A stretch of DNA of 12,045 nucleotides from a virus. The notes under the pieces were generated by a model. That model had not been told where the DNA came from. It saw only the letters and a list, made by a program, of their open reading frames with translations, and made no database searches. Positions 1,915 to 7,203 of this stretch are shown one piece after another (position 1 is the stretch's first letter; every line of letters begins with the position of its first letter). Position numbers and translations under genes: made by a program. The stretch lies in the UHGV virus genome UHGV-0169025, one strand, 5' to 3'.

Positions 1915-3279
1915 ATGGCTACGTGGCAACAGGGTATTAATTCTGGTGGTTTTCTGGCTGGCATTGGTGCGCAAAACGAGAATGCGCCAAAGGCAAGCGA
2001 CATTAACGCAACGCTTGGTCTGATCCGCGAAAACAATGAACTAGCTCGCTCAGGTGCAAATAACGTTGGCCTGACCGCCTTACGTGGTCTGGCTGGAGTT
2101 GCTGATATTTATAAGCAGGAGCAGCAACAGAAAGCTATTAGGGCGTTCAATAAGGTTCACGCTGATGCATGGGCTTCTGGTGATCCATCGGGACTATTTA
2201 AGTTTGCCCAGGAAAATCCAGCGTTTGTTGCACAGGCACAACAGGCGTTTTCCGGTCTTAATGAGCAGCAACGCAACGATATGGGCGATTTAGCCATGAG
2301 GGCTAACGTCGCTCTTTCTCAGGGACCGGAAGCCTACAGTAAATTCATTACTGACAACAAGGACAGGTTAAATCGCGTTGGTGCTAATGCTGACTGGATG
2401 ATTCAGACAGGTATCCAGAATCCAGAGCAGCTATCACACATGCTGACTACTATGTCTATCGGTGCGCTTGGACCAGAAAAGGCGTTTGCTGTTCAGGATA
2501 AGATGGCTGGTCGTGAAATTGACCGAGGCAGGCTGGCAGAGACAATCCGCAGCAATCAGGCTGGCGAGGCGCTAACAGCGCGTGGTCAGAATATCACGAT
2601 GCGCGGTCAGGATTTATCGATGCAGAGAGCATCAATGAAAGGGGCGGTTGGGAATAATGAGCGTACAGTTCAGTTAGCAGATGGCAGAACTGTAACGGTA
2701 GGCGGGAAGCTTCACGGCGCTGGGGCTAATGCGTTCTACGAAGGTATCGACAACGAGGGGAATATGGTTCGCGTTCCTGCTGGCTCTATTGCCGCTCCGG
2801 CTACATCGGCAGCAAGCGCGCAGAATTACACAATGAAGAAAGATCTTGATGCAATTTCTGGTGCATCAATTGACGATCTTGGCTTCATGACTGGCATTAC
2901 AGGCTCTTCAGGTTCTCCTGCTCTTGGTGCAGATATTCGTAGCCGTGCATCTGGTGGTGATCAGAGGAAACTATACAACGCTGCACAGCGAATCCAAGGA
3001 AAGATGCAGAATCAGGGCATTGCAGCAGCCAGAGACATGGGGGCATCCGGTATCAACACCGTTGCAGAAGCAAAGATGTATTTTCAAGGTATGCCACAGG
3101 TTGATTTCTCAAGCCCTGAAGCACTGCAACAATCAATGCGCGACATTCAGCAATATACCGACAATTACAACCAACAATATAACGTTAATGTTGGTAAATC
3201 TCAGCGGCAGCAATCTCAACCTACACAGGTATCACAGCCAGCAGCCAGCAGTAACTTTTCTTCACTATGGGGTGATTAA
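1915..3279 (+). CDS. Ejection (E) protein, P22 gp20-like
   Basis: 454 aa (P22 gp20 is about 471 aa). SD AAGGGG 6 nt upstream of ATG 1915. Stop overlaps the next start (TAATG at 3277-3281). Assignment by position and size. Confidence 0.8.
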
Positions 3280-5854: not shown

Positions 5855-6106
5855 TTATGTGTCTTTTGGGATTCTATCCAGTAACTCGTTGGAAATTTTA
5901 TCAAGTAAAGATTTTATTTGTTTAAGATCTAATGATTTGTCTACTGATGAGACGTCATATGATAACGCATCCTCAAGAATTTGAACTATCTCTGAGTTCA
6001 TAGATCGACCGTTTCGTTTAGCCCTTTCCGCAATAGCACTACGCATGCCGTCAGGCATTCTAACCGTAAATCTTTCTATGAAATTTGATTCGTCTTTTTC
6101 TGACAT
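5855..6106 (-). CDS. Ribbon-helix-helix repressor, Arc/Mnt family (Mnt-like, positional mnt equivalent)
   Basis: RHH signature FTVRMPDGMRSAIAERAKRNGRSMNSEIVQILEDAL resembles the Mnt/Arc N-terminal fold (NGRSMNSE...Q...DAL). Start chosen at ATG 6106 (MSEKDESNF...) so the beta-strand sits near the N-terminus; the longer ORF-track start (ATG 6151/6154) adds a hydrophobic MMLLCFLLLICLANKK extension that looks unlikely. Divergent from the Arc-like gene as in P22 immI. Confidence 0.7.
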   Translation of the reverse strand: MSEKDESNFIERFTVRMPDGMRSAIAERAKRNGRSMNSEIVQILEDALSYDVSSVDKSLDLKQIKSLLDKISNELLDRIPKDT

Positions 6107-6155
6107 TTTCTTATTCGCAAGGCATATGAGCAATAAAAAACACAGTAGCATCATA

Positions 6156-6215
6156 TTGACATTATGAGCAATGGCATCATAATGGTGTCATGACATCATG
6201 GTGATGTCATTATGA
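6156..6215. promoter_or_regulatory. Divergent overlapping sigma70-like promoters (Pant-like rightward, Pmnt-like leftward) with palindromic operators
   Basis: Plus strand: TTGACA (6156-6161), 16-nt spacer, CATAAT (6178-6183). Minus strand: TGACAC (revcomp of 6184-6189), 18-nt spacer, CATAAT (revcomp of 6161-6166). Palindrome O1 CATTATGA-N9-TCATAATG (6160-6184) covers both core promoters. Perfect palindrome O2 ATGACATCA-TGG-TGATGTCAT (6190-6210) sits at the predicted rightward transcription start. A third CATTATGA copy is at 6208-6215. Confidence 0.5.
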
Positions 6216-6226
6216 CGGAGATATTG

Positions 6227-6403
6227 ATGATGAGCGATGTTCTTTACAGTGGTCGTAAAAGTCAGAGTTTCCAGCTTCGTTTGCCAGCGCGAATGAAGGA
6301 GGAGATCAGACGCGTAGCTGAAATGGATGGAATTTCTATCAACTCTGCGATTGTGCAGCGACTGGCTAAAAGCCTGAGAGAGGAAAGAGTTAATGCCCAG
6401 TAA
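6227..6403 (+). CDS. arc: Ribbon-helix-helix repressor, Arc-like
   Basis: 58 aa from ATG 6227 (SD GGAG at 6217-6220, 6-nt spacer); ORF-track start 6212 and ATG 6230 are alternatives. FQLRLPARMKEEIRRVAEMDGISINSAIVQRLAKSL resembles P22 Arc (FNLRWPREVLDLVRKVAEENGRSVNSEIYQRV). First gene of the rightward operon, as in P22. Confidence 0.75.
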   Translation: MMSDVLYSGRKSQSFQLRLPARMKEEIRRVAEMDGISINSAIVQRLAKSLREERVNAQ

Positions 6404-6476
6404 AAATAGTGAAGCCCGGCAGTGCGCGAACACAAACCGGGCCTCTATGTCAGTAACCGTATGCAAGGAAACTAAC
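6404..6476 (-). ncRNA. Candidate sar-like antisense RNA across the arc/ant-like intercistronic region
   Basis: Minus-strand promoter-like elements inside the first codons of the downstream gene: TTGGAA (revcomp of 6507-6512), 18-nt spacer, TACAAT (revcomp of 6483-6488), predicting a start near 6475. A GC hairpin (GCCCGG 6414-6419 / CCGGGC 6437-6442), read on the minus strand, is followed by TTCACTATTTTTA. The transcript would be about 70 nt and complementary to the SD (AAGGAA 6465-6470) and start of the 6477 gene. P22 has an antisense sar RNA at the analogous arc-ant junction. Confidence 0.35.
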
Positions 6477-7115
6477 ATGAGCATTGTAGCAAAATCAGAT
6501 TATAACTTCCAAGGATTCACCTTTAACCCTGTAACAGAGGGTGGGTCTATCTGGTTTACCTCCACCGAACTAGCTAAGGCTCTCGGCTATAAAAAAACTG
6601 ATGCCATCAGCCAAATTTATGCCCGTAATGCTGACGAGTTTTCCGACTCAATGTCATTGACCCTCAATATGAAGGTCAACGGAATAAACAATAGCTTACG
6701 TAACAAATCGGTCAGAGTTTACTCGCTCCGAGGCGCTCACTTGGTGGCGATGTTTGCTTCTACGCCCAAGGCCAAAGAGTTCCGCCGCTGGGTGCTGGAT
6801 ATTTTGGATCGGCAGGCAGAATGCTCACCGATTGCAAAACAGTTTACTGACGAAGAACTGGTTAATCTCTGCTACTTACAATTGTGGATGGAGAAGAGTC
6901 AACAAATGTGCAAACACATCTACCCAGGAATGAAGCAAATTGGTTCTGAGCTTTCAGGAAGGATTTACGATATTGCATATGAGACTCGCTACATGTCAGA
7001 AGAAACCAAGAAATCACTTCTTCGTGAAATGAAGAATCTTGATACCAACAATTTTGTCGTAAAGAACGCTCAGCCAATGCTGGCAAAACTGCGCGGCGAG
7101 GAATGGATTCATTGA
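6477..7115 (+). CDS. Phage antirepressor-like protein with N-terminal Bro-N/AntA-type domain
   Basis: Start ATG 6477 with SD AAGGAA (6465-6470, 6-nt spacer) is preferred over ORF-track start 6393, which overlaps arc. N-terminal region FQGFTFNPVTEGGSIWFTSTELAKALGYKKTDAISQIY...VRVYSLRGAHLVAMFASTPKAKEFRRWVLDILDRQ fits the Bro-N/AntA pattern as I recall it. C-terminal half not recognised. Confidence 0.7.
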   Translation: MSIVAKSDYNFQGFTFNPVTEGGSIWFTSTELAKALGYKKTDAISQIYARNADEFSDSMSLTLNMKVNGINNSLRNKSVRVYSLRGAHLVAMFASTPKAKEFRRWVLDILDRQAECSPIAKQFTDEELVNLCYLQLWMEKSQQMCKHIYPGMKQIGSELSGRIYDIAYETRYMSEETKKSLLREMKNLDTNNFVVKNAQPMLAKLRGEEWIH

Positions 7116-7134
7116 TTGGTGCGCCGGACGGCGC

Positions 7135-7165
7135 AAAAAGAAAACCGCCAGTGTGCTGCTGGCGG
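7135..7165 (-). terminator. Intrinsic-terminator-like hairpin oriented for leftward transcription
   Basis: CCGCCAG (7145-7151), 7-nt loop, CTGGCGG (7159-7165). Read on the minus strand the stem is followed by TTTTCTTTTT (revcomp of 7135-7144). A second 5-bp GC hairpin GCGCC-GGAC-GGCGC lies at 7121-7134. On the plus strand the run is A-rich and upstream of the stem, so it is not a convincing rightward terminator. Confidence 0.3.
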
Positions 7166-7203
7166 CCTATGTCACACCCTTACTACCACATAAGGAATGC
7201 CTA

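Follow-up and report, generated by a model that had tools for sequence, protein, structure and literature searches.

The minus strand of positions 6402-6476 very probably encodes a diverged homologue of the sar RNA of phage P22, which most likely blocks translation of the antirepressor gene ant. These positions lie in a window of 12,045 nucleotides (the whole stretch of DNA that was analysed, from the UHGV virus genome UHGV-0169025), which is the immI ('ant moron') region, in the late operon, of a P22-like (Lederbergvirus-type) E. coli prophage. The element has the sequence anatomy of sar and is homologous to P22 sar, its structure is that of a minus-strand RNA, and its promoter is conserved at synonymous sites of ant. 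It is a diverged, unannotated member of the sar family, as is expected in a P22-like immI region. By analogy with the genetics and biochemistry of P22, the element would be transcribed from the minus strand and would repress ant translation.

The arc-ant region of the prophage

The ORF list and domain searches gave the gene order ejection-protein genes, sieA-like, mnt-like, arc, ant, second antirepressor, small ORF, second mnt-like, tailspike and integrase. The mnt-like gene (5855-6109, minus strand; Pfam Arc, E 1.6e-17) encodes an Arc-family repressor and is divergent from arc. At 6150-6211 the promoter scan and an inverted-repeat search revealed overlapping divergent promoters with operator candidates, an arrangement that is also found in the P22 annotation. 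These are a Pant-like promoter, TTGACA-16-CATAAT (6156-6183, plus strand), a Pmnt-like promoter (6177-6150, minus strand) and palindromic operator candidates such as ATGACATCA/TGATGTCAT (6190-6210). The arc-like repressor gene (6212-6403, plus strand; Pfam Arc, E 1.2e-11), which is annotated in RefSeq with a PGAP start equivalent to 6230, is followed by ant (6477-7115, plus strand). The product of the latter contains Bro-N and P22_AR_C (Pfam) and was assigned to the PHROG 'anti-repressor Ant'.

Further downstream a second antirepressor gene (7204-7929; PHROG 1726 'anti-repressor') was found, as well as another mnt-like gene for an Arc-family repressor (8165-8422, minus strand) just before the tailspike gene. 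In total the region holds three ribbon-helix-helix repressors and two antirepressors, an immI more elaborate than that of P22. The mnt-arc-ant stretch of 1.3 kb was present in 92 of 5,426 complete E. coli genomes. For E. coli strain EN-1077 (RefSeq record CP159209) the prophage adjoins tRNA-Arg and yfdC, and the annotation across the region consists of CDSs only, without any ncRNA.

The predicted antisense RNA and its target

The sar-like antisense RNA (6402-6476, minus strand) is predicted to be about 71-75 nt long, as judged from two covariance models (R1 and R2, see below), its fold and its homology to P22 sar. With the spacing of P22, in which the -10 hexamer is followed by 3 nt, CAT and then +1, its predicted 5' end is G6476, and the predicted 3' end falls within the T-run 6406-6402. 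The first-pass annotation, made from the letters of this DNA, had proposed the folding of 6404-6476 as a check on such an RNA, and the outcome was favourable: the minus strand formed two hairpins with a free energy of -33.3 kcal/mol, against a mean of -17.4 for shuffled sequences (z = -5.07), and none of 200 shuffles folded as well. Stem-loop 1 of the MFE fold (GUUAGU...ACUGAC; 6449-6476, minus strand) carries in its apical part the anti-Shine-Dalgarno sequence UUCCUU, the complement of 6465-6470. Stem-loop 2 (6411-6445, minus strand) is a GC-rich terminator hairpin, GAGGCCCGG...CCGGGCUUC, and the minus strand continues 3' of the stem 6445-6411 with ACUAUUUUU. This includes the T5 run of the terminator (6402-6406), part of which falls in the arc stop codon TAA (6401-6403). 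The GC hairpin at 6414-6442 with a T-rich run beside the arc stop that had been described earlier proved to be the core (GCCCGG...CCGGGC) of this longer stem.

A simple terminator scan did not list the hairpin 6411-6445, which is not evidence against it because its apical part exceeds the 8-nt loop limit of the scan. The efficiency of the terminator is uncertain, since the U-run sits 4 nt (ACUA) from the stem; the U-tract of P22 sar, AACUUU, is weaker than that of the window.

The target site (6465-6479, plus strand) consists of the ant Shine-Dalgarno sequence AAGGAA (6465-6470), a 6-nt spacer and the ATG at 6477-6479, the start that PGAP uses in CP159209. It had been claimed that the antisense RNA covers both the Shine-Dalgarno sequence and the start codon. 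This should hold for the former and for the whole intercistronic region, but the ATG is probably left uncovered, given that the P22 spacing places the 5' end at G6476. The intercistronic distance of 73 bp (6404-6476) is indeed comparable, as had been stated, to that of P22 (68 bp).

Comparison with P22 sar

The P22 sar RNA (Rfam RF00262) is reportedly the subject of Liao et al. 1987, Wu et al. 1987 and Schaefer & McClure 1997. For P22 its expression during infection and its repression of ant translation through pairing at the ribosome-binding site are documented (PMC12197685, PMC7968456), with sRNA-seq in PMC13397905. In the P22 RefSeq record sar is a minus-strand misc_RNA between arc and ant, with Psar in the first ant codons and a terminator that reaches the arc stop. 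Like the window element, it is located on the strand opposite to ant in the arc-ant intercistronic region of an immI that has mnt, Pant/Pmnt and arc upstream. Likewise, its extended -10 is at the identical distance to the ant start codon (TGcTATACT in P22 and TGcTACAAT in the window, with identical spacing), and the 5' end of the RNA abuts the ant ATG. The fold of P22 sar has the same outline of two hairpins (z = -5.26), the first hairpin carrying the anti-Shine-Dalgarno sequence and the second being the terminator that overlaps the arc stop. Pairwise alignment revealed the common blocks TTGCTAyAmT, nnnCAT, CATGTTrGTTT, TTACTGACA and GAnGCCC...GGGCTTC.

The two elements differ in length (about 68-69 nt for P22-type sar, and a predicted 71-75 nt here), in the apical part of the terminator hairpin, which is different and bulged in the window (GUUUGUGUUCGCGCACUG), and in the -35, which unlike that of P22 sar is TTGGAA with an 18-nt spacer. 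The genes that they precede are also different. The window Ant combines Bro-N with P22_AR_C and the P22 Ant P22_AR_N with P22_AR_C, so that the C-terminal domain P22_AR_C (29% identity) is all they have in common. The first-pass annotation had suggested that the layout is kept although the downstream gene differs, and this was thereby borne out.

In megablast and blastn searches against phage records the arc-intergenic part gave no P22 match; the homology became visible only by direct alignment and with covariance models. The Rfam model RF00262 did not match the window even at E <= 10, and its gathering threshold of 43 bits was not reached, whereas P22 as a control scored 97.8 bits. Among 20 sources with an R1-positive element the gathering score was passed by four (P22, SPN3UB, L201 and L145) and failed by 16; those that pass include two Erwinia prophages. 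In phage SPN3UB, whose ant is 95% identical to that of the window, the upstream element passes RF00262 at 48 bits. Intermediates such as SPN3UB link the window element to the Rfam sar family. RF00262 recovers only P22-like hairpins, probably on account of a narrow seed.

Related elements

A pattern scan of IMG/VR yielded about 110 sar-like sites, which represent 48 distinct RNAs, and two hairpins are present in all of them. The sites precede antirepressors with three types of N-domain, i.e. P22_AR_N, Bro-N and KilA-N with ANT. Unrelated pattern matches (L004, L031 and L047) were excluded after folding, as was a group with a GTTTACTGAyCAG tandem repeat next to the start codon (L050, L058, L067, L084 and L098), which is not sar-like and may represent an operator array.

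From the sar-like RNAs the covariance model R1 was built on 30 aligned representatives (A3). A second model, R2, was a leave-clade-out model containing P22-type and other variants without any window-type sequence; the seed sequences of both had been gathered with a pattern that fixes stem 1. R1 scored the window at 79.6 bits and P22 at 73.8 bits. R2 found 6402-6476 on the minus strand with 55.3 bits (E 1.8e-9), the next best score in the 12-kb window being 10 bits. This score and the feature-by-feature match given above uphold the earlier claim that the element is the equivalent of P22 sar at the arc-ant junction.

To avoid circularity, a comparison set of 80 loci was collected by means of the Bro-N Ant protein and not of the RNA, and was searched with R1. 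At E <= 1e-3 there were 42 matches, all on the strand opposite to ant. About half of these exactly abut the ant ATG and the rest are no more than about 50 nt upstream of the start of the recorded match, apart from six that are 400-1,200 nt upstream and presumably adjoin a different gene. The genera with matches belong to the Enterobacterales and include Buttiauxella, Intestinirhabdus, Erwinia, Citrobacter, Pantoea, Serratia, Rahnella, Klebsiella, Xenorhabdus, Morganella, Arsenophonus and Lonsdalea. The lengths of sar in the loci of the A5 alignment cluster at 75 and 72 nt.

Some individual loci deserve mention. A record titled Chryseobacterium sp. 18061 (L180) carries a sar-like element of 59.9 bits beside a Bro-N ant typical of Enterobacterales; the label may reflect contamination or mislabelling. 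Phage JEP4 (L002) has the same sar and ant module at 2834-3080 with 96-98% identity. The similarity begins precisely at the arc stop, and the small gene before it has no sequence relation, which suggests that the sar terminator is a recombination boundary of the module. In two IMG/VR contigs with KilA-N and ANT antirepressors (L069 and L086) the sar body abuts an upstream ATG and the -10, TGcTAyATT, lies about 27 nt further inside the gene, in L086 adjoining an internal Met (MNNVANK). Judged from this placement, the sar of these loci would have a 5' end about 27 nt longer, covering the start codon.

The strand of the conserved fold

In the 42 related elements 95.3% of the cells were paired and compensatory changes occurred in 13 of the 18 base pairs, counts that are somewhat inflated by the fitting of the A5 alignment to the model and that come from loci which are not phylogenetically independent. 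Helix 1 had such changes in seven of its eight pairs. Helix 2 was 98.3% paired, with compensatory changes in six of ten pairs and with many G-U pairs, on the minus strand only. The observed values were reached by none of 500 shuffles, and controls with a slid register gave at most 63% pairing.

Any hairpin forms on both strands, and the hairpins might act on the plus strand as structure of the arc-ant mRNA, be it a processing site, an attenuator or a fold that sequesters the ribosome-binding site, with no antisense RNA involved. The Shine-Dalgarno sequence indeed lies within the complement of stem-loop 1, and 76.5% of the cells can pair on the mRNA strand. The latter value is, however, to be set against the 95.3% on the sar strand. 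The difference resides in 139 G-U pairs of the minus strand, which become C-A mismatches on the mRNA; only two cells show the opposite sense (A-C on the sar strand, G-U on the mRNA strand). This G-U bias indicates that the selected fold belongs to the minus-strand RNA. In addition, the T-run is 3' of the hairpin on the minus strand only, the -10 box is kept at synonymous sites (see below), and at the homologous site of P22 experiments have defined sar as a minus-strand RNA. A role of the hairpins in the mRNA without an antisense RNA is therefore extremely unlikely.

The Psar-like promoter

On the minus strand a Psar-like promoter is found at 6483-6512, in codons 3-12 of ant. It consists of a -35, TTGGAA (6512-6507), an 18-nt spacer and an extended -10, TGcTACAAT (6491-6483), in which the TG (T6491, G6490) is one base upstream of the -10 hexamer. 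The promoter scan recovered TTGGAA-18-TACAAT at 6512-6483 with 9 of 12 matches, in agreement with the first-pass annotation, which had named this pair and had placed it within the first dozen codons of the gene that starts at ATG 6477. The match alone is not above chance, as the scan gave four sites in 1.4 kb and 2.9 were expected from shuffled sequence. Elsewhere in the same codons there is a perfect TATAAT (6504-6499, minus strand), 16 nt upstream of the conserved -10, which arises from D-Y-N codons. It was rejected as an alternative promoter, being without a good -35 and replaced by TGTAAT, TGAGAT or TAAGAT in relatives; in this prophage a minor, longer antisense RNA might start from it.

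In nearly all of the 42 related loci the -10 box, TAyAmT, is at the same distance from CAT. Its trace in the coding sequence was followed in 38 ant representatives of less than 85% identity. Codon 4 is ATA, GTA or TTA in 34 of these; of the four exceptions, three are mis-registered starts. It ends in A (NTA) in 37 of the 38, which corresponds to a wobble entropy of 0.18 bits. Where codon 4 encodes Ile it is always ATA (18/18), a codon that enterics use rarely. Codon 3 ends in T in 33 of the 38, those codons being ANT (wobble entropy 0.69 bits). At codons 2 and 5-15 the wobble entropy amounts to 1.0-1.95 bits, so these neighbouring wobble positions vary freely. In the hexamer TAnAnT, the constraint on codons 3 and 4 concerns T(-12), A(-9) and T(-7). 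This pattern is hard to reconcile with protein coding alone and indicates that the promoter is under selection. Such a signature at synonymous sites illustrates how the opening codons of a gene can be constrained by a regulatory element embedded in them.

These data also bear on the view that the promoter match is due to chance and that the terminator merely stops stray leftward transcription from downstream, no discrete regulatory RNA being made. It would fit with promoter-like sites being about as frequent as in shuffled sequence, and with the second minus-strand terminator that is present 700 bp downstream. It does not account for the conserved wobble positions, nor for the fixed distance of the -10 from both terminator and ATG across genera and across three types of antirepressor N-domain. 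Stem-loop 1, moreover, covaries and would not be needed by a bare terminator. The probability of this view is consequently next to negligible.

The start of ant

The intercistronic stretch could itself be coding, with Ant being made from ATG 6393 as a protein of 240 amino acids and the conservation of the region being that of an N-terminal extension. The ORF 6393-7115 is open and its ATG overlaps the arc stop (ATGCCCAGTAA). Of 40 related loci (A5), 29 keep the ant frame free of stops across sar, which exceeds chance when compared with 10 and 9 for the other two frames. In 19 of the 40 an ATG in this frame occurs close to the arc stop, and the long version is the one annotated in GenBank for SPN3UB, KP12 and Oslo. 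However, P22 and ten others have the frame interrupted, 21 of the 40 loci are without the ATG, and ATG 6477, the PGAP start, is preceded by a good Shine-Dalgarno sequence at a 6-nt spacing. The extension peptide varies freely, and the changes preserve the RNA pairing and not the amino acids. Neither the G-U strand bias nor the wobble signal of the -10 is explained by a longer protein, which would also be compatible with the presence of sar. That the conservation of the region reflects an N-terminal extension is very unlikely. The peptide from 6393 showed no conservation beyond that imposed by the terminator DNA.

Proposed mode of action

The following picture is modelled on P22. A strong, Pant-like promoter would drive the arc-ant mRNA. 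From the opposite strand, the leftward extended -10 promoter written into ant codons 3-5 would direct transcription from about G6476, directly upstream of the ant start codon. The antisense transcript of about 71-75 nt would span the whole arc-ant intercistronic region and end at the intrinsic terminator, the U-run of which overlaps the arc stop codon. It is expected to fold into two hairpins and to display the anti-Shine-Dalgarno sequence at the tip of the first. Because the RNA is cis-encoded, it is complementary to the Shine-Dalgarno sequence at 6465-6470, and its perfect complementarity to the arc-ant mRNA from Pant would permit a pairing that occludes the ant ribosome-binding site. Less antirepressor would then be made, in addition to the transcriptional control by Arc and Mnt. 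In P22 transcription from Pant interferes with Psar, which is likely a further layer.

Several small RNAs resemble the element in part. The c4 RNA of phages P1/P7, which takes part in immI antirepressor control, is likewise a small phage RNA that blocks antirepressor synthesis near a ribosome-binding site. It is, however, released by processing from the operon transcript of the same strand, whose upstream sites it targets, and is not a convergent cis-antisense RNA. No sequence relation between c4 and the window element was seen. The block of antirepressor synthesis by c4 through pairing around a ribosome-binding site is described in PMC12197685. The SymR antitoxin RNA (RF01809) is also cis-antisense, about 77 nt long, covers the Shine-Dalgarno sequence of its target and resembles the element in its two-hairpin outline. 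No other Rfam family matched the interval, but at 21.8 bits (E 0.054 in a 301-nt search) SymR remained below its gathering score of 61, and its context is unrelated; identity with SymR was rejected and the match was taken as architectural resemblance. The OOP RNA of lambda differs from the window element in locus and sequence, and it targets the 3' end of the cII mRNA via RNase III cleavage instead of occluding a ribosome-binding site. This short cis-antisense RNA of the phage is transcribed from its own promoter, ends at an intrinsic terminator and tunes the decision between lysis and lysogeny (PMC12197685).

The occurrence of the element shows that the sar circuit extends beyond P22 and its near-identical relatives and is a widespread and modular form of prophage antirepressor control in E. 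coli and other Enterobacterales. Induction and cross-talk driven by Ant are probably buffered post-transcriptionally in many lysogens. Most copies of sar are missed by current annotation (the Rfam model and RefSeq/PGAP), and they would be found by a covariance model of broader scope, such as R1.

A second antisense candidate

A second, unannotated antisense unit is probably present upstream of the second antirepressor gene (ATG 7204), at about 7134-7222 on the minus strand. Its extended -10, TGcTACATT (about 7222-7214, minus strand), lies in codons 4-6 (N-V-A) of that gene and its terminator, GGCCGCCAG-CAGCACA-CTGGCGG followed by UUUUCUUUUUG, at 7170-7134 (minus strand). The candidate RNA (about 7134-7208, minus strand) is predicted to be about 70 nt long, to cover the start codon and the Shine-Dalgarno sequence of the second antirepressor gene and to fold into two hairpins (z = -2.9). 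It matched no Rfam family over 7134-7208, and with only 3 bits from R1 it was rejected as a member of the sar sequence family.

The two units may be instances of something more general. In that case sar would be one member of a much wider portable control cassette, made up of a -10 in codons 3-5 of the target, an anti-Shine-Dalgarno hairpin and a terminator, which serves antirepressors with three unrelated N-domains (P22_AR_N, Bro-N and KilA-N) across the Enterobacterales, and the locus would carry two such units in tandem, the second being an undescribed antisense RNA. The chances for and against this combined proposal are judged to be about even. The terminator of the second candidate and its TGCTAnAnT box are kept in more than 25 distinct related loci in which the N-termini of the second gene differ, and its terminator stem shows some covariation.
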